Under the pieces are notes generated by a model. The model did no database searches, was not told the DNA's origin, and worked only from the letters and a program-made list of their open reading frames with translations. Shown piece by piece: positions 33,987 through 41,368 of a stretch of 64,000 nucleotides of DNA. The DNA lies in contig CADBQN010000006.1 of assembly GCA_902796855.1 (NCBI GenBank), positions 892-64,891 of the forward strand. Reading direction: 5' to 3'. Positions within the stretch are counted from its first letter, which is position 1. Each line of letters opens with the position of its first letter. The translations under genes and the position numbers were made by a program. This DNA comes from an uncultured Bacillota bacterium (GTDB taxonomy: Bacteria > Bacillota > Dehalobacteriia > UBA7702).

Positions 33987-34042
33987 ACTTTAAAGAACTG
34001 CCCCTTTGAAACTAACTCTTTATTCCGGGACGCGTCCCCTTT

Positions 34043-34265
34043 GGCGTGCCGTCGGAACCGCCTTTGGTGGTTTCATTGGTTTTTGGTGTGCTATCGGAAC
34101 CGTCCTCATCGGTTTCATCGGTTTTCGGCGTGCCAGCGGAACCGTCTTTGGTGGTTTCATTGGTTTTTGGCGTGCCATCGGAACCGTCTCCATTGGTTTC
34201 ATCGGTTTTTGGCGTGCCATCGGGATCGTCCCTGTTGGTTTGCTGTTGGTTTTCCCCGTTGGTTT
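34043..34265. repeat. Tandem array of five 42-bp repeats (GGCGTGCCATCGGAACCGTCTTTGGTGGTTTCATTGGTTTTT consensus), preceded by a GGGACGCGTCCC palindrome
   Basis: Units at 34043, 34085, 34127, 34169, 34211, last one 44 bp and degenerating; open in 4 of 6 frames; minus frame would read a KPMKP-rich 14-aa repeat from a TTG start. Confidence 0.8.
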
Positions 34266-34319
34266 AAGGGAATGTATCAAATAGTTAGCAAAAAGAGCTC
34301 TGAGGGTTCCACAAATAGG

Positions 34320-35477
34320 CTATATACTTTTCTTCCATTCTTTGTATAATTCGGCACATTTGGCAACACAAAAAGCTGAAAACAATAAACCACCGCCATT
34401 TCGTTTGTTATCTTTTTCAATCTGAACTTTGTACTGAGCTTTGATATCATTATCAGAGAAATCATCAAAATGTATTTTGAGATATTTGTCAAAATCATCC
34501 TTTTCCTGTGCGTCTTTAAAAATGAGAAGCTGATTGAAATTATTCTCACGACTGGAAATATCAAGTGACCCATGAGTAAAAAGCCGCAATAGTTTCCCCT
34601 CTATGGAATCCAACAAATAGCATGAATACCAAAAATCGTCTCTACCGGCTACAGCACAGGTTTTCGCTTTGGGAAGGTATTTTCGAAACCCATCAAAACA
34701 CCAAAGTTCCGTTTCATAAATAATTGTGTTATGAAACATGATGTTTAGTGGAGCAAGATGCATCTCCGGATCTGTATAAAATGCTGCGGGTGCCAACCAA
34801 TCAGGTTTCATTTTCCCGAATTGTTTTATTTGATACTCCGGAAAATCGGTATGGTAAGAGTAATTCTTATTACCCCAATCCATTTCCCAATTATCAATAT
34901 CATCCAATAATATCATTAACCGTTCTTTAGGAGGTCGATCAATACCGAAACGCTTTCGCCATAAATACTCTACATCATTCATATCAGCGTTTCCATCGAT
35001 TGCAGTGTTATTATCAACCACTCTCGTATAGATTCGATACGGAAGAACTGTTTTTCCAATCTTTTTACCGTCCGAAGATGTAATATTCCCATCTTGATAC
35101 GATTTTTCCAAATAATACGGAACATCAGATGTATTTTTTACAATAAGCACATCGATTTCATGATTTTCTATGGTAATTGTCCTCATTTCAATACGGGGTC
35201 TAACGCTTCCGGCATAGTGAATATTCCTTAAAATATTTACAACACGCTGTTGATCTCGCCTATTTGCATCGTTTTCCACGCCGAGGATTTCAAAGGTCTG
35301 ATCTCCAATACCAAAAATAATATATGCATCACGATCTGCCCGCGAATTTGCCATACAGGTTATATCATGAACAAGATCACCTTTATCATGATGATGCTCT
35401 CTTTTGAAATCCCACCAATCATCTTCACGTTGAGACTGTATCAGTTCTTCAATTACGGATGTTAAATCTTTTTCCAC
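34320..35477 (-). CDS. Schlafen/AlbA_2 (PF04326) domain protein with uncharacterised C-terminal domain, likely defence-associated
   Basis: N-terminus 'EELIQSQREDDWWDFKREHHHDKGDLVHDITCMANSRADRDAYIIFGIGD' fits AlbA_2 core; AT-rich codon usage; last gene of island operon. Confidence 0.55.
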   Translation of the reverse strand: MEKDLTSVIEELIQSQREDDWWDFKREHHHDKGDLVHDITCMANSRADRDAYIIFGIGDQTFEILGVENDANRRDQQRVVNILRNIHYAGSVRPRIEMRTITIENHEIDVLIVKNTSDVPYYLEKSYQDGNITSSDGKKIGKTVLPYRIYTRVVDNNTAIDGNADMNDVEYLWRKRFGIDRPPKERLMILLDDIDNWEMDWGNKNYSYHTDFPEYQIKQFGKMKPDWLAPAAFYTDPEMHLAPLNIMFHNTIIYETELWCFDGFRKYLPKAKTCAVAGRDDFWYSCYLLDSIEGKLLRLFTHGSLDISSRENNFNQLLIFKDAQEKDDFDKYLKIHFDDFSDNDIKAQYKVQIEKDNKRNGGGLLFSAFCVAKCAELYKEWKKSI

Positions 35478-35536
35478 AAAGATACCTCCTGACTATTATA
35501 AACAGGGATATTTCCAAACAAAGCCGTCCCTTTTAA

Positions 35537-38437
35537 TCAAAAGCTAAGGATATTGTTTAAAATAACAAGGTTAAAAATAAACTGTTTTTCCCCTTCTTTG
35601 AACTTCACATTAATATAACCCTTGTCAGTATCTTTTTTTGTAATCGTACCTTCGCCGAATTTTTTATGAGTTACCTTCATTCCGATTTTCATATCATCAA
35701 AAATTACTTCGGCATGATTTGTTTCGGCTTCGCTTGCTTTTTCAGTCTTTTCAGCAGTACCCTTTTTGCTGACCGTCTTATGTTGGCTTCGTATATCGGA
35801 ATCAGCTTCCACTGTTTTTTCTAAAGGCTTCGTCTCTTCTTCACGAAAAACCGGTTCAGACAGATCCATATCATTTTCCATTGTTGCCTGCTGATTGTAA
35901 AAAAGCTGCTGGTATTCTTCTTTTTTGATAACCGTGTCCCAACCGCCGACATCTTTTCCTTCGTGTTTATCTATACCTGTGTAAGAAAGACTGCTGTCCT
36001 CATACCGCTTAAATTTAAAAATAGCGTCATTCATCAAGCTCGCGTTGAACACTCCCAAAGCGCAGAGCAACTCAAAATCCTTTACGTCAAGACCGGTAAC
36101 TTTTTTGAAAAGTCCGGGTTCAAGCTGGGTAATTACATCTTTCAGGGTGCGCTCACGGTAATCCGTCAGATACATGAAAACCGGAATACGCGTGGCAAAT
36201 TTGATGAGCTTTTCCTGAATCTGCTTCCGCATGGATTTATATTCTTTTTCCTCTGCCGTAAGCTCTTTCTTTTCTTTCTTGGAAAGCTTATCTTCTCCCT
36301 CTTTCTTGGCTTTTTTAACCTTCTCCGATTTATTGATAATGGTCTCAATATCGCTGTTTAAGGAGCGGAACCCCTCAATATGCATCAGGGCGTTCAGCGC
36401 TTCTTCACTTGCCAGCAACCGGGAAAGCGTTTCATTATCTACATTCACCAGCAACGCGGACTCCCAGCGGCGCGCAAGCAAAGTAGCGGAAGTACCGGCA
36501 AGAGCAATATCAAGAACATCCTGCGCGGAAATCTGTTTCATGGTTGAACCGTCATAGGCCAGCACAGGCAGGAAGCTTATAAACTCCGCGACTTTCTTTT
36601 CAGGATTATCTTCATTGACGTTCAGGCGGCAGGAATAATCGGAAATCTGACGAAGCGCACGGTCAAGAGCAAAATCAAAAACATAGCATTCCTGCTTCAT
36701 TATCTGTTCTTTTCCCGCGTCGTCCTTTATTGTCCATGGCGACTGCACACGAAAAGCCGTTTGAAAATACGTTTCGGGGCTTTTCAGATTCCGCAGCATA
36801 AACACGCCTGTCCACGGTTTTATCGTGACGCCCGTTGTGAGTTTGCCGCAGGAAAGGGTAATTGTTTTTGTGGCAAGCGGATTATCCATCGCGTTTTGAA
36901 CAGGGCGCAAAGCATCAAGACCGATACCAGCCTGAGAACCGGCGCAGACAACAACTTTATAATCTCTGAAATAGTTATCCTGCATCAGAAGATTATTCAT
37001 TGCATAGCAGGCCGCGACATTCGGCAGAAACCAAAGCGTATGATTCAGCACCGCCAAAAGCCGGGCATCAGAAAAGGGCATCGGCGGTCGTTTATCCTGT
37101 CCCAGTTTCAAATCATCCACACTGGAAGGAAGATATGACCCGCGGATAAGCTGAAGCCATTTATAGACCTCGTTTTCATAAACGAATTTAGCATTTTCAA
37201 CGGTATCACCTTCCTGCACTTTCGCGGAGAAAAAAACATTCAGGTCAAATTCGTTAAATTCCCCGTTCAGTGCAATCTGGCGAATACTGTCCGGAATTTG
37301 ATAGGTGAGCATCACCATTCGAGGCAGAGCGAGATAGGGATTATCCGAACCTTTCCAGTTCTCTTTTGCTCTTTGCTCGTCTGAATAAGTCCAGTTATAA
37401 ATCTGATCTTCTATAAATTCACCGCTGTTAAGGGCGCGGAACGGAGTTCCGGACAGGAATAAATAATACTGCGTGGTAATGGGCAAAAATGTTTCGTTAT
37501 AGGCGTTATCCGCCTCATCCTTTTTATATTTTTCCTGGTCAAAGTCGGCCTCTGCCTCTTCATCGGGATTTTCAAAAAGCTTTTTTGCGTTTTCTCTCCA
37601 CGCTCCGAAATGGTACTCGTCAAAAACAACCAAATCCCAGTTGGCCGAGTGAATAAACTCATTCTTGGACTTGATGCCGCCGTTTTCATTCGTGCCCAAC
37701 AGGTCTTGAAACGAACCAAAGACAACAATCGGTCTGCTTTTATCCGCGTTGTCAAAGGCCTGATCGATATTGATATTCTGACCGTGCGCGTCTTTGTTTG
37801 ACACAAACTGCCATCCCTCAAAATCGGTATGGCCCGCCAAATCCTCCGCCCACGCGGATTCCACCGCCGGTTTAAAGGTAAGAACAAGAACTCTCTTTAA
37901 CCCCATCTTTTTTGCCAGCTCATAGGTGGCAAAGGTCTTGCCGAAACGCATTTTGCAGTTCCAGAGGAATTTCGGCGCGCGGGTGGGCTCGGCCTCCTCA
38001 GCCTGTTTAAAATAGCTCATCGCACGCTGAACGGCCTCTGCCTGTTCCGGACGCATTTGAAAAGACAGGGTTCTGTTTTCCGTGTTTTCCGTATTGTCCC
38101 GCACCGCAACAATCGCGGCTTTTACCGCGTCTAAATCACATTGGTACCATTCGTTTCGATCCGCTCCGGCGTTCAGCTGACGATACCCGCGCCGACGAAG
38201 GGCCGCATGAATGTCATGGTCAGTAAAACAGCTCCCATCAGGGCGCACAGCGGGTTCGGTCAGCACGATTTTATACGGTACAGCGGAAGTGTGCATCTGT
38301 TCTGCAACACGGGTCTCAGCGTCACGTTCGGTATATCCGATTTTCAGATAGCCCTTGTGGGACGCAACGCCGATAAGCTCATACGCATATATGGTTGGCG
38401 TTACTTCTGGACGAGGGGCGAAAAAATCAATAGCCAT
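35537..38437 (-). CDS. Fusion protein: N-terminal T5orf172 (GIY-YIG-superfamily) domain + SNF2-like SF2 helicase/ATPase + coiled-coil + C-terminal Tudor-like domain; putative restriction/effector subunit
   Basis: 'TIYAYELIGVASHKGYLKIGYTERDAETRVAEQ' = T5orf172; 'KMRFGKTFATYELA' (motif I), 'WDLVVFDEYHFGA' (motif II), 'LFLSGTPFRA' (SNF2 motif III); C-terminus 'MKVTHKKFGEGTITKK...INVKFKEGEKQF' like the UvrD/PcrA C-terminal Tudor. Confidence 0.65.
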   Translation of the reverse strand: MAIDFFAPRPEVTPTIYAYELIGVASHKGYLKIGYTERDAETRVAEQMHTSAVPYKIVLTEPAVRPDGSCFTDHDIHAALRRRGYRQLNAGADRNEWYQCDLDAVKAAIVAVRDNTENTENRTLSFQMRPEQAEAVQRAMSYFKQAEEAEPTRAPKFLWNCKMRFGKTFATYELAKKMGLKRVLVLTFKPAVESAWAEDLAGHTDFEGWQFVSNKDAHGQNINIDQAFDNADKSRPIVVFGSFQDLLGTNENGGIKSKNEFIHSANWDLVVFDEYHFGAWRENAKKLFENPDEEAEADFDQEKYKKDEADNAYNETFLPITTQYYLFLSGTPFRALNSGEFIEDQIYNWTYSDEQRAKENWKGSDNPYLALPRMVMLTYQIPDSIRQIALNGEFNEFDLNVFFSAKVQEGDTVENAKFVYENEVYKWLQLIRGSYLPSSVDDLKLGQDKRPPMPFSDARLLAVLNHTLWFLPNVAACYAMNNLLMQDNYFRDYKVVVCAGSQAGIGLDALRPVQNAMDNPLATKTITLSCGKLTTGVTIKPWTGVFMLRNLKSPETYFQTAFRVQSPWTIKDDAGKEQIMKQECYVFDFALDRALRQISDYSCRLNVNEDNPEKKVAEFISFLPVLAYDGSTMKQISAQDVLDIALAGTSATLLARRWESALLVNVDNETLSRLLASEEALNALMHIEGFRSLNSDIETIINKSEKVKKAKKEGEDKLSKKEKKELTAEEKEYKSMRKQIQEKLIKFATRIPVFMYLTDYRERTLKDVITQLEPGLFKKVTGLDVKDFELLCALGVFNASLMNDAIFKFKRYEDSSLSYTGIDKHEGKDVGGWDTVIKKEEYQQLFYNQQATMENDMDLSEPVFREEETKPLEKTVEADSDIRSQHKTVSKKGTAEKTEKASEAETNHAEVIFDDMKIGMKVTHKKFGEGTITKKDTDKGYINVKFKEGEKQFIFNLVILNNILSF

Positions 38438-38441
38438 ATTA

Positions 38442-40025
38442 TCACTCCAACTCCATCTTTGGTATTGACTCTTCTATAACTTTGACTTCGTGTTCATTCA
38501 ACCCATATTTTTCGTATAGTTTTTCATCCGTCCATCGAATAGAGAAGTCTTGAATTGGGACAAACTCATAAGCTTTTGGAGGCATGTCTTGTGTTGAGGT
38601 TTTTATAGCAACTAAAAACCTCAGAAATTTGGTTGATATATACGCCATTAAATTATCGGCTTCTTCTTTCGATAATCTTCTATCTGGCGGTAAAGCAACA
38701 ACATAAGTATTAGAACTACACGAATTCGGTGCACTAATTTTTGGCTTTCCAACTATGCTTCCACTTGGATTTCCTGAACGAGGAATTATTACTTTATATT
38801 TGTTAACTGCCTCTCTGTTCTTTGGGATGCTTTTTTCAGCGACATAACACATTCCGCCATGAATATACACTTTTACTTGTCTAGCGTTAGTAGGCTTTGA
38901 ACTCATAGCAATAAAGCTTTTCCCGTCCGCTGTCTGAATTAAACCGTCTTCTTTATTCCCGTTCCAGTCAACTTTTGTATGGAACCCGAAATATCTACCA
39001 GCATTTAGCCATTCAGATAATGAGGGTTCGTTAATCTTTTGAACCTTTTTCAAAACTGATATCTGGGCATCATTCCTTATAAAGGTTTCCATATCTTTTT
39101 CAAGCAATGGACGTTCAGTCATGCTGACATAATCTCCATCATGTGAAAAAACCTGACAAAGCCCTCTATTATCCCTATCCCATAGGAAATAACACACTCC
39201 ACCTTTTATCTCCACTCCAGGAAAGCAATCTGAGGCTGTAGGATAGTCGTGGATGACCCTTATTCTATCATCATGAAGCATGTCACTTCTAAATGAATCC
39301 AGCCCTCGTCCACCCATGAACCATCGAGCAGGGATAATCATGCAAAGATACTTTGGGGATAGTTTTTGCGCCTGTTGTACAAACTTTTGATATATCGGCA
39401 AAGCGCTTGCAGCATTACCTCCATCACTAAGATGATATGGAGGATTACTAATAATTACATCAAATTTCATATTAAATGCCTCCTGTGGCTTTAACATATG
39501 AATGAACTCATATGCATGAGTTTCCATAGTTTCGCCTCTATCCTCTTCTCCAAGAACAGTCTTATTGGAAATACCGCAATATATACAACGCCTATCTTTC
39601 CAATTATGTTGGATTTTTTTATACCTTATGTTTCCCTGAGCTGTGTCAAATCTCGTAACAGAGTATTCACTATTGGGGTACTTCGAACAGTAAATGCTTC
39701 TTCTAGATAGCAAGCTAGTCAACTCAGTAATAGCAATGCCATAGATCTGGTTTTGAAAGATATGGTCTATTCTTTCTTGCAAATCAGGGAATTGCCATTC
39801 TAATCCTTTTATCAAGCGTTTTGCTATCTCCCGAAGAAATACGCCACTTTTACAAGCAGGGTCAAGAAACTTCGTATCAGGATTTTCAAACAATTCCTGC
39901 GGGAGCATATCCAACATTGCATTGGCTATATCCGGCGGGGTAAAAACCTCATCATTTGAAAGATTCGCTAAACAAGTCAGAACATCAGGGTTATATATAT
40001 TTCCAAAAAGACCATTATCAGCCAT
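38442..40025 (-). CDS. Gamma-class N6-adenine DNA methyltransferase (Eco57I/TaqI-like) with C-terminal putative TRD
   Basis: Motif X 'DEVFTPPDIANAMLDML', motif I 'FLDPACKSGVFL', motif IV 'DVIISNPPYHLSD'. Confidence 0.8.
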   Translation of the reverse strand: MADNGLFGNIYNPDVLTCLANLSNDEVFTPPDIANAMLDMLPQELFENPDTKFLDPACKSGVFLREIAKRLIKGLEWQFPDLQERIDHIFQNQIYGIAITELTSLLSRRSIYCSKYPNSEYSVTRFDTAQGNIRYKKIQHNWKDRRCIYCGISNKTVLGEEDRGETMETHAYEFIHMLKPQEAFNMKFDVIISNPPYHLSDGGNAASALPIYQKFVQQAQKLSPKYLCMIIPARWFMGGRGLDSFRSDMLHDDRIRVIHDYPTASDCFPGVEIKGGVCYFLWDRDNRGLCQVFSHDGDYVSMTERPLLEKDMETFIRNDAQISVLKKVQKINEPSLSEWLNAGRYFGFHTKVDWNGNKEDGLIQTADGKSFIAMSSKPTNARQVKVYIHGGMCYVAEKSIPKNREAVNKYKVIIPRSGNPSGSIVGKPKISAPNSCSSNTYVVALPPDRRLSKEEADNLMAYISTKFLRFLVAIKTSTQDMPPKAYEFVPIQDFSIRWTDEKLYEKYGLNEHEVKVIEESIPKMELE

Positions 40026-40731
40026 TTTCTGTAATCCTCCTATAATGGATTAACGGATATTCGTTTACAGGTTTCGGAATAAGTTTCTTTGTAATGGGAT
40101 CAAATGTCCAATTATTATAATTCAGCGCAACATCGTCAAATAAATTTTGTTCTTCTGCGTAGTTACTCTTATTCGAATTTTCTTTCAAAAGAACATCCAA
40201 GCGGAAATCACGCCGTTTTATTCTCGCGTCGTTAAAAGGAAACGTCCATTCAGCGAAAATAATGGGGGTTTCTGTGTCCTGCTGGTTCTCATCAACACAC
40301 ATCAGGCTCAGGGCGTTTCCGCAAACGATATTCTTTTGCAGGATATACCGCGCGGCGGTTCTGGCCTCATCGTTGGCTTCCTTTTTGCAAACCGCCGTAT
40401 ATTCCGCGTCCCACAGGGCAAACAGATTTTCGCGGCATATTTCAGCGTTATCCGCTAAAATATCTACACCGTAAAGGCTCGTCAGCGCAAGAATGGCGTT
40501 TCGCTCATAATCATAGGCGCTTTTTTTGTATTTTGATTTTACCACCGCCAATTTACGGGAAAGAATCTCCGCAAGGAAAACGCCCTCGCCTACGGCAGGC
40601 TCTAAAAATCTTGAATCAATCCGCAGACATTCATCCGCTACCAAATCACACATGGCCTTTACTTCACGCTCAGCGGTAAATACTTCCCCGTGGTCAGATA
40701 TACGCTGTTTTGTTTTTACTTGCTTTGCCAA
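40018..40731 (-). CDS. N6-adenine MTase-like protein with motifs X and I but degenerate motif IV (NPPY -> GNAL); likely catalytically inactive paralog or partner
   Basis: 'HGEVFTAEREVKAMCDLV' (X), 'FLEPAVGEGVFL' (I), 'IVCGNALSL' in place of NPPY; 8-nt overlap with downstream MTase. Confidence 0.55.
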   Translation of the reverse strand: MAKQVKTKQRISDHGEVFTAEREVKAMCDLVADECLRIDSRFLEPAVGEGVFLAEILSRKLAVVKSKYKKSAYDYERNAILALTSLYGVDILADNAEICRENLFALWDAEYTAVCKKEANDEARTAARYILQKNIVCGNALSLMCVDENQQDTETPIIFAEWTFPFNDARIKRRDFRLDVLLKENSNKSNYAEEQNLFDDVALNYNNWTFDPITKKLIPKPVNEYPLIHYRRITENG

Positions 40732-40762
40732 AAGTATAAACCCCCATTTCGGTCAAAAAGGA

Positions 40763-41224
40763 TTATTTCATCACAACCGGAACCGTTTCCAGTCCGAGGC
40801 GTTTTGCCGCGCAGTATCGCAGGTATTCCCCTTCTAAAAGGTACTTTGAACCGTGACGCGAAACGACGAGCGGTTTTCCCAAATCGCCGTGGATTTTATA
40901 GTATGTCACCATCCGTTCAATCGCCGCTTCCGCCGGCTTTTCATAATTGGCGTTCACCCTTATGCTCTCAAGCGCGATAAACCATTTGCTGAATGACGCT
41001 TTTCTGTTTTTGACCGGTTTTCGCGTCTGAACAGGTTGAGACGTATCCTCTTTATAATAATCGCAGTGGCCCGCGCCATAGCAGCGGTCGGAATGTTTTA
41101 CGCAATAGGCGTTTTCTTTGCGATAAAAAATACATTTACTCCGGTGGCGGCGGTCGTCGTCTTCGCCCCGTGTGAATTTTTCCACATGCCACGGCGTACC
41201 GGTCAAACGATTCAGCCCGGTCAT
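40763..41224 (-). CDS. Zn-ribbon + ParB/Sulfiredoxin-like nuclease (ParBc) domain protein
   Basis: 'CIFYRKENAYCVKHSDRCYGAGHCDYY' Cys/His cluster; C-terminus 'LESIRVNANYEKP...LLEGEYLRYCAAKRLGLETVPVVM' matches ParB N-terminal domain; start ATG 41224 with AAAGAGGTG RBS. Confidence 0.6.
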   Translation of the reverse strand: MTGLNRLTGTPWHVEKFTRGEDDDRRHRSKCIFYRKENAYCVKHSDRCYGAGHCDYYKEDTSQPVQTRKPVKNRKASFSKWFIALESIRVNANYEKPAEAAIERMVTYYKIHGDLGKPLVVSRHGSKYLLEGEYLRYCAAKRLGLETVPVVMK

Positions 41225-41368
41225 CGCGAACACCTCTTTTCTCAAAAAACAAAACAATATAACAAAAAATATTCCAATTATATTAAATTCCACATATTTC
41301 CTCTTTTTCCTTCTTCCCCTCCCCTCACCCCTATTCTACCACCGTCCCGGTGACATTTTCGGGACATG

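Follow-up and report, generated by a model that had tools for sequence, protein, structure and literature searches.

A 237-residue half-methyltransferase as the predicted small subunit of a DrdVI-family restriction-modification system in an uncultured Bacillota bacterium

What is a short, methyltransferase-like protein doing directly in front of an intact DNA methyltransferase? The question was raised by a 237-codon open reading frame (ORF) in a 64,000-nt stretch of contig CADBQN010000006.1 (positions 892 to 64,891 of the forward strand; assembly GCA_902796855.1, from an uncultured Bacillota bacterium). The whole of this stretch was analyzed and is called the window below. In this text, the ORF is designated M1, the methyltransferase gene that follows it M2, and the nuclease-translocase gene after that R; the coordinates of all features are collected in Table 1. 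An initial annotation, made from the letters of the window, had described M1 as an inactive methyltransferase paralog that retained its S-adenosylmethionine (SAM)-binding motifs and had its catalytic NPPY replaced by GNAL. The best overall explanation, to which we assign a rough probability of 0.75, is that M1 is a constant, non-catalytic subunit of a DrdVI-family M1-M2-R system.

The family assignment came from homology. A tblastn search against plasmids matched pDrdVI of Deinococcus wulumuqiensis NEB 479, on which genes for a 212-aa “DNA methyltransferase”, a 539-aa Eco57I-domain protein, and an 851-aa helicase follow one another in the same order as in the window. M1 was 40% identical to M1.DrdVI in BLASTP (residues 5-236, E = 1e-50), M2 was 45% identical to M2.DrdVI over its full length (E = 2e-157), and R was 54% identical to its DrdVI counterpart over 864 columns (E = 0). 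Because the homology of all three window proteins to the pDrdVI set is full-length, M1 was identified as the M1 gene of a known family; by this homology, the window operon is a DrdVI-family restriction-modification system with M1 as its small subunit. M1 is not novel: genes of this kind are already named, as parts of DrdVI/MaeIV-type systems, in REBASE-linked papers (PMC6430315, PMC4996451, PMC10113651). In these papers of the family, the REBASE authors list DrdVI as “Type IIG, split methylase”. M1-2.DrdVI cloned in E. coli was reported to methylate GCAGCC, yielding N6-methyladenine (m6A) (PMC6430315), M1/M2.MaeIV of Methanococcus aeolicus was assigned to a “so called split methylase/RM” family (RM, restriction-modification) and methylates GCACY (PMC10113651), and the DrdVI-type R was described as a GIY-YIG-type nuclease fused to a superfamily 2 (SF2) translocase (PMC4996451). 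In the open-access literature (CC-licensed PMC papers and bioRxiv), only these three descriptive papers were found, and none gives a mechanistic account of M1 or separates the roles of M1 and M2.

The likeness to DrdVI and MaeIV extends to the make-up of each gene. Both have the same three genes in the same order as the window: an M1 of ~210-240 aa with motifs X and I-III, an Eco57I-type M2 with NPPY, and an R that joins a GIY-YIG/T5orf172 nuclease to a translocase. With M1 and M2 co-expressed, one strand of a short asymmetric site (GCAGCC or GCACY, respectively) is methylated. The window differs from DrdVI in several details. Its M1 has GNAL rather than GDAL in motif III and a longer, divergent tail, and its M1 and M2 genes overlap by 8 nt, compared to an 8-nt gap in pDrdVI. 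The window R also carries a C-terminal extension of ~115 aa (about residues 850-966) that is absent from the 851-aa DrdVI R and includes a weak match to the PcrA/UvrD Tudor domain (residues 918-947). Among relatives, the length of R ranges from about 810 to 1,100 aa.

M1 is predicted to initiate at a TTG codon, with a Shine-Dalgarno-like GGGGG run 9-13 nt 5' of it. This start is taken to be correct because the N-terminal 26 residues are conserved among homologs; the public NCBI/ENA gene call for the same ORF (P0001, 211 aa) begins at Met27, and motif X is thereby lost. A search of 5.8 billion proteins returned more than 7,800 M1 homologs of about 237 aa. The best 120 homologs listed were nearly all 234-253 aa long, with identities of 64-100%, and an exhaustive profile search yielded 654 representatives of 50%-identity clusters at E < 1e-30. 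Invariant residues were distributed along the whole protein in the alignments. In pairwise codon comparisons, the nonsynonymous divergence (dN) was 0.06-0.28 in the N-terminal and C-terminal parts alike; synonymous sites were saturated in every available pair, and dN is accordingly reported without a ratio to synonymous divergence. At the level of sequence conservation, then, the 237-aa minus-strand ORF is a real gene under strong purifying selection, as the initial annotation had drawn it.

All three motif strings that had been read in M1 are present: GEVFTAEREV (motif X), LEPAVGEGVFL (motif I), and IVCGNALSL at residues 135-143. Motif X was aligned with the DEVFTPP of M2 by hhalign with a probability of 97%, and the invariant residues of motif I are kept even in distant plasmid homologs. 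In the 81 family sequences aligned, motif II has an invariant Y87 and G88 followed at position 90 by D (70 sequences) or E (11). At position 139, within the GNAL string, 67 members have N and 14 have D; the corresponding string in M1.DrdVI is LIHGDALSM. The identity of this third string was settled by natural single-chain relatives of ~480-530 aa (P0126, P0149, P0152, P0238, P0268, P0269). Their first 150-200 residues are 44-48% identical to M1 and include NIxCG(D/N)(A/T)L; FDVIIGNPPY lies 20-60 residues further on and is followed by a C-terminal half homologous to M2. Since these relatives carry the string upstream of a normal motif IV, IVCGNALSL is motif III, not motif IV; judged by these alignments, GNAL is motif III of a gamma-class adenine methyltransferase. 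We take it to be the counterpart of ILADFL, the motif III of M.TaqI, which itself stands ahead of FDLILGNPPY in that enzyme. For motifs X, I, and IV, the correspondence with M.TaqI was borne out by a profile search. The proposed replacement of NPPY by GNAL must therefore be abandoned: the catalytic half is absent, not mutated. Neither a PP dipeptide nor a match to [NDS]PP[YFW] was found anywhere in the 237 residues, which also disposes of an NPPY-like motif displaced to another part of the protein.

The extent of the missing part was apparent from profiles and from a structural model. Motifs V-VIII and a target-recognition domain (TRD) were not found in M1, and hhalign against the M2 profile aligned only residues 14-68. 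An AlphaFold2 (AF2) model built from a 120-sequence alignment had a mean confidence (pLDDT) of 84 and a pTM of 0.81; it features beta1 (residues 42-45), beta2 (86-90), and beta3 (135-139), followed by unrelated beta hairpins. (An earlier model from 30 sequences had an ill-defined N-terminus and weak Foldseek matches.) All Foldseek matches to the better model were gamma-class m6A methyltransferases (BsaXI, CamA, LlaGI, LlaBIII, BrxX/PglX, MmeI), with ~80-160 aligned columns, TMq values of no more than 0.34, and weak E-values (0.03-0.3). Only some 100-110 residues of M1 superpose on these enzymes. A search of the M1 profile against PDB sequences returned nothing significant (top hit M.BseCI, E = 0.48). 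For the tail (residues 145-237), there was no Pfam family past residue 144, and the PDB profile matches in that region were not significant. On the strength of the alignments and the model, M1 is a SAM-binding N-terminal half (motifs X, I, II, and III) joined to a family-specific, beta-rich tail of ~90 residues, and it lacks motifs IV-VIII and a TRD. With that motif content, it cannot be catalytically competent on its own. The description of M1 as an inactive methyltransferase paralog thus holds in part: the likeness, the intact SAM-binding motifs, and the incapacity for catalysis alone all stand, but a full-length paralog with a dead motif IV does not.

In relatives P0191, P0248, and P0256, an M1-type N-half (~175 residues) is followed by a long, low-complexity linker rich in Pro, Glu, and Thr and by a helical C-terminal domain that takes the place of the usual tail.

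M2, by contrast with M1, has the full set of motifs, including NPPY, and was rightly called intact. In 66 sequences, motifs X (DEVFTPP), I (FLDPACK(S/T)GVFL), II (YGIAITE), III (HAYEFIH), and IV (FDVIIxNPPY) were invariant or nearly so. An invariant lysine (Lys59, in DPACKSG) occupies the first glycine position of motif I, and it was considered as a sign of a dead SAM site in M2. This idea was set aside: in a profile search, the motif X/I region of M2 was aligned to VETPPEVV...LEPACAHGPFL of M.TaqI, such that Lys59 fell on Ala49 (ACAHG) of that active enzyme and thus need not disable cofactor binding. An invariant cluster of Cys113, His140, Cys147, and Cys150, inserted between motifs II and III, is probably a zinc ribbon. 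Conservation within M2 is highest in the N-half (71% mean pairwise identity vs. 55% for the catalytic region). By its own motifs, M2 is a complete methyltransferase. The term “split methylase” is therefore misleading, as M1 duplicates N-terminal motifs that M2 already possesses. R begins 4 nt past the M2 stop codon, and its helicase part is matched by PADLOC model PDLC03626. The ORFs of M1, M2, and R are all intact in the window.

The arrangement of the three genes was examined in 160 related loci, 80 from one-genome-per-species contigs and 80 from metagenomes; the denominators for neighboring genes are those loci with enough flanking sequence to hold the next gene. Among the genome loci, M2 followed M1 in 68/70 and R was present in 48/51. 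For the metagenome loci, the respective counts were 71/73 and 42/42, and a further figure of 57/58 was reported. The M1-M2-R order is kept in ~150 loci from many phyla, and M1 is always the first gene of the operon. The genome loci came from Clostridia, Bacteroidales, Treponema, Fibrobacter, Turicimonas, Anaerolineae, Planctomycetes, Elusimicrobia, and others. Mycolicibacterium plasmids carry M1 and M2 with a GIY-YIG R, and a Heliusvirales phage has the complete set. On Enterococcus and Lactococcus plasmids (L088, 6986-12065, and L090, 2824-7876), an M1-like gene precedes a fusion protein of ~1,450 aa. The start of the Enterococcus fusion overlaps the M1-like stop by 8 nt, and there is a 1-nt gap in Lactococcus. 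Pfam matches place a DUF4145-like N-terminus, a ResIII/SNF2 helicase, and a C-terminal Eco57I methyltransferase in this order in the Lactococcus fusion; the Enterococcus fusion matches R and then M2, i.e. the same order. From its domain order, this layout is that of a Type ISP-like enzyme with an added half-methyltransferase.

The 8-nt overlap between M1 and the NPPY-bearing M2, noticed at the outset, has the form ATGnnTGA and recurs in 122/153 related loci; most of the others overlap by 4, 11, 14, or 17 nt. Conservation of this kind excludes a sequencing artefact at the junction, and with it the concern that M1 might be a frameshifted fragment of a longer gene. It also points to translational coupling of the two genes, as had been proposed, and M1 is almost certainly co-produced with the intact methyltransferase as an accessory subunit. 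Scans for promoters and terminators around the operon yielded nothing above shuffled expectation.

Certain loci depart from the common layout. In three metagenome loci (L141, L142, and L144; about 1565-2903 in L141), two M1-like ORFs, the first a divergent copy of 214 aa and the second a copy of 224 aa, stand in tandem 5' of M2. M2 is split into 2-3 ORFs in otherwise intact loci (L004, 8707-10249; L005, 8710-10279; L006, 1647-3216; L110), which could be due to decay, assembly error, or phase variation; in L004, which lies in a prophage-like region, R has been reduced to a remnant. In about a quarter of the genome loci (L010, L012, L014, L015, L018, L027, L078, L082), M2 and R are separated by 350-1,490 nt, which leaves room for an extra gene.

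Whether M1 helps to choose the target site could be judged from the way in which the parts of the system diverge. Pairwise identities of defined segments of M1, M2, and R were computed in 57-66 loci and compared by Spearman correlation. The core and tail of M1, the N-half of M2, and every segment of R were correlated with one another (0.39-0.6). The catalytic region, TRD, and C-terminus of M2 showed almost no correlation with those segments (-0.03 to 0.27), even though they lie between them on the DNA. Individual pairs illustrate the same pattern: L072 and L074 share 98% identity in M1 and 97% in the M2 N-half, but only 62% in the catalytic region and 19% in the TRD, whereas L079 and L061 share 57% in M1 and 91% and 78% in the catalytic region and TRD, respectively. 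Given this lack of correlation, the C-terminal half of M2 (motif IV onward, with the TRD and C-terminus) is, as read from the alignments, swapped as a specificity cassette with a breakpoint near FDVIIxNPPY. The divergence of M1 is uncorrelated with that of the M2 TRD (Spearman about 0), so M1 is unlikely to be a specificity factor; the pattern argues against the specificity role once suggested for it and places M1 in the constant chassis. The history that M1 has in common with R and the N-half of M2 is compatible with contact between M1 and either of them.

A second line of evidence was furnished by proteins in which an M1-type N-half is joined to an M2-type catalytic half. Such natural enzymes exist (P0126, P0152, P0238, P0268, P0269, L065) and are rare. 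From them it follows that a complete enzyme can be built on an M1 N-half. The idea that the single chain might be the common form was rejected, as a metagenome scan seeded with P0152 retrieved 80 loci that all had the three-gene layout. Genomic context was available for five loci with fused genes, and R was absent or fragmentary in four of them (L065, L176, L177, L179) and present in one (L180). A separate M1 was accompanied by R in 90/93 loci, compared to 1/5 for the fused form (Fisher p = 5e-5). On this small sample, the disparity suggests that the arrangement with a separate M1 matters mainly when R is present.

Taken in this way, M1 would be made in step with M2 via translational coupling, would bind SAM, and would join the M2-R complex as its constant, non-catalytic subunit. 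There it may act as a pseudo-dimer partner of M2 or as a coupling or licensing factor for R, rather than as a second methyltransferase or a specificity subunit. It could do so by activating M2, by replacing the second protomer of a Mod-like dimer, or by coupling or licensing R, perhaps in response to SAM. By analogy to Type ISP and Type III enzymes, the complex would be expected to methylate an asymmetric site on one strand and to cut unmodified DNA by means of ATP-driven translocation. A more specific version is tentative, and we consider it appreciably less probable than the general one: M1 would not be needed when M2 transfers methyl groups, but R could be coupled or licensed only with its help. 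M1 would act either as a sensor that allows restriction only while SAM is available (in answer to SAM-degrading enzymes of phages) or as a stand-in for the second protomer of a dimer like that of Type III Mod. That a separate M1 accompanies R and shares its history with R and the M2 N-half is compatible with this version, but neither observation demonstrates it.

Several points weigh against a non-catalytic subunit that serves R. The fused form was sampled in five loci only, and the fused gene of L180 still has an R gene next to it, such that an M2 N-half plus a separate M1 is not strictly required with R. M1, R, and the N-half of M2 may have a history in common only because they were spared by cassette recombination. 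SAM binding by M1 is deduced from the conservation of motifs. Finally, the published clones always held M1 and M2 together (PMC6430315, PMC10113651).

The last point leads to the alternative that survives best, a true split enzyme, in which the catalytic half of M2 would rely on M1, in trans, for a functional SAM-binding half. The N-half of M2 would then have been re-purposed, e.g. as a docking site for R, and neither protein would methylate alone. The family's name and the joint cloning of M1 and M2 speak for such an arrangement, as do the single-chain enzymes that join an M1-type N-half straight to an M2-type catalytic half and the two peculiarities of the M2 N-half, namely the invariant lysine at the first glycine of motif I and the Cys/His insertion. 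Yet the motifs X, I, II, and III of M2 are themselves invariant and lie at a TaqI-like spacing from NPPY, and the lysine is aligned with an alanine of the fully active M.TaqI. In addition, the accommodation of two N-halves in one Rossmann-type fold would require a domain swap, and nothing points to such a swap. Because the motifs of M2 are invariant, we regard the split enzyme as improbable, while rating it above the remaining alternatives.

M1 might instead be mainly a regulator of expression, controller-like or SAM-responsive, that times R relative to methylation and is no stoichiometric subunit. Its unvarying place at the head of the operon and the conservation of ligand-binding motifs without a catalytic role would suit that function. 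However, M1 is acidic (isoelectric point 5.3), no DNA-binding domain was detected in it, and close relatives have a separate helix-turn-helix (HTH) gene upstream, which is the usual controller. The start-stop overlap, moreover, argues for matched production of M1 and M2, as expected of partners in a complex. M1 is accordingly held to be quite unlikely as a regulator of expression; the broader suggestion of the initial annotation, a regulatory or sensor subunit, may still hold.

The reading from which the work began, a full-length inactive paralog with NPPY mutated to GNAL and perhaps a role in specificity, retains very little probability. It drew on a superficial resemblance of the “IV-GN...” context in M1 to the “IIGNPPY” context of motif IV. 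Against it are the single-chain homologs that hold both strings, the GDAL of M1.DrdVI, which is a canonical motif III, the lack of any alignment between M1 and M2 past residue 68, the superposition of the M1 model over only about a third of its length, and the failure of M1 to co-vary with the TRD.

Hardly better placed is a partnership between M1 and the ParB-like protein encoded upstream, as the two parts of a split ParB-methyltransferase fusion. The two genes are adjacent on the same strand, 31 nt apart, and the upstream ORF has a weak match to ParB_N (E = 0.013). No homolog of the ParB-like ORF was found in any of the 80 genome loci or the 80 metagenome loci (0/160), however; an HTH gene occupies the upstream position in relatives of 79-80% identity, and the genes upstream of M1 vary among loci (a ribosomal operon, HU, HTH regulators). 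The pairing envisaged in the initial annotation is thus refuted as a conserved linkage, although the two proteins may still interact locally in this single genome. The ORF itself has a Cys/His-rich N-terminal part, and the arginines of the GERR motif appear to have been replaced (LEGEYLRY).

That M1 is a decaying fragment (a frameshift, a truncation remnant, or a sequencing error at the junction) can be dismissed for practical purposes: it looks like a truncated methyltransferase beside a full one, and certain related loci do have broken M2 genes (L004, L005, L006), but thousands of homologs of the same length occur in many phyla with invariant motif residues, saturated synonymous sites, a low dN in both halves, and the preserved junction with M2.

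With M1 placed as a non-catalytic subunit, the closest precedents outside the DrdVI family are other restriction enzymes that translocate on DNA. In the Type ISP enzymes LlaGI and LlaBIII, a nuclease, an SF2 translocase, a gamma-class m6A methyltransferase, and a TRD are combined, and one strand of an asymmetric site is methylated (e.g. PMC3553950). The window system resembles such an enzyme split into separate genes, a resemblance that is confined to architecture and inferred mode of action; M1 also matched the methyltransferase domains of LlaGI and LlaBIII in structure. A Type ISP enzyme holds all its parts, an Mrr-type nuclease included, in one polypeptide and comes without a separate half-methyltransferase, whereas the window has three genes, a T5orf172/GIY-YIG nuclease, and the extra M1. 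The likeness to Type III systems (Mod2Res, e.g. EcoP15I) lies in the asymmetric site, m6A on one strand, and a helicase-nuclease subunit that finds its target only through the methyltransferase; NCBI labels one M1 homolog “type III restriction endonuclease subunit M”. The EcoP15I structure reportedly contains two methyltransferase-type protomers per complex, of which one methylates. Type III Mod, however, is a beta-class homodimer of complete subunits, whereas a truncated paralog would take the place of the second protomer in the window system. No relationship to Mod was found at the sequence level.

Further afield, dead paralogs serve as scaffolds or activators of methyltransferases in METTL14 with METTL3, Dnmt3L with Dnmt3a, and Trm6 with Trm61. 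The comparison is one of analogy only, with no homology beyond the class I methyltransferase superfamily. Those partners keep the full fold and have generally lost cofactor binding, whereas M1 keeps the SAM motifs and is without half of the fold. M.AquI alpha/beta and M.EcoHK31I alpha/beta are likewise encoded by two adjacent or overlapping genes with methyltransferase motifs and are named as one enzyme. They are C5-cytosine methyltransferases in which the motifs are divided without duplication; in the window, no motif is missing from M2, and those of the N-terminus occur a second time in M1.

Table 1. Positions of features of the M1-M2-R operon and its neighbors in the window
Feature	Position	Strand	Basis or remark
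M1, 237-aa half-methyltransferase	40018-40731	-	ORF, homology to M1.DrdVI, family alignments, AF2 model
Part of M1 bearing on the N-terminus missing from the public call	40653-40731	-	Homology favors the TTG start at 40731
M1 motif X, GEVFTAEREV, residues 15-24	40660-40689	-	G15, E16, V17, T19 invariant (81 sequences)
M1 motif I, LEPAVGEGVFL, residues 43-53, SAM-binding glycine loop	40573-40605	-	E44, P45, G48, G50, F52 invariant (81 sequences)
M1 motif II, YGVD, residues 87-90	40462-40473	-	Acidic residue closing beta2
M1 motif III, NIVCGNAL, residues 134-141 (the “GNAL” string)	40309-40332	-	N134, G138, A140, L141 invariant
8-nt overlap ATGGCTGA, M1 stop/M2 start	40018-40025	-	Last 8 nt of M1 include the M2 ATG
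M2, 527-aa gamma-class (TaqI/Eco57I-like) N6-adenine methyltransferase	38442-40025	-	Pfam Eco57I, E = 8.7e-34
M2 NPPY, residues 194-197	39435-39446	-	Sequence
M2 variable TRD	About residues 331-455 of M2	-	Approximate extent
R, 966-aa T5orf172 (GIY-YIG-like) nuclease fused to SF2 translocase	35537-38437	-	Pfam T5orf172, E = 5e-9
385-aa protein, PADLOC candidate defence family PDC-S50	34320-35477	-	Full length, E = 1.9e-110
42-nt tandem repeat, 4.8 copies, 80% match, 84-nt super-period	34040-34241	-	Beyond the PDC-S50 homolog
ParB-like ORF, 176 codons from GTG (about 153 from an internal Met)	40763-41293	-	Weak C-terminal match to ParB_N, E = 0.013; PHROG ParB-like, 7.8e-6

The operon sits in a region of low GC content (about 34000-41000; 37-47% GC vs. 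52-61% in the flanks) that takes in the PDC-S50 homolog and the genes of R, M2, and M1 and reaches into the ParB-like ORF; it was probably acquired by horizontal transfer as a defence island. The PDC-S50 homolog lies directly downstream of R and also matches PHROG 29016 (E = 2.4e-64). Read on the minus strand, the 42-nt unit may code for a repeating 14-residue peptide, TDETNKDGSDGTPK.

If the annotation offered here is correct, abundant genes of gut metagenomes that are now mostly labeled “hypothetical” or “N-6 DNA methylase” are the M1 genes of DrdVI-type systems, and their products are neither active nor degraded methyltransferases. The family is large, with thousands of members on chromosomes, plasmids, and phages, and it is likely a barrier to gene transfer in gut bacteria. 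The exchange point at FDVIIxNPPY may help in the engineering of specificity. A stand-alone SAM-binding half-methyltransferase that serves to couple or license R, and not for methyl transfer, would, if true, constitute a distinct class of restriction subunit.

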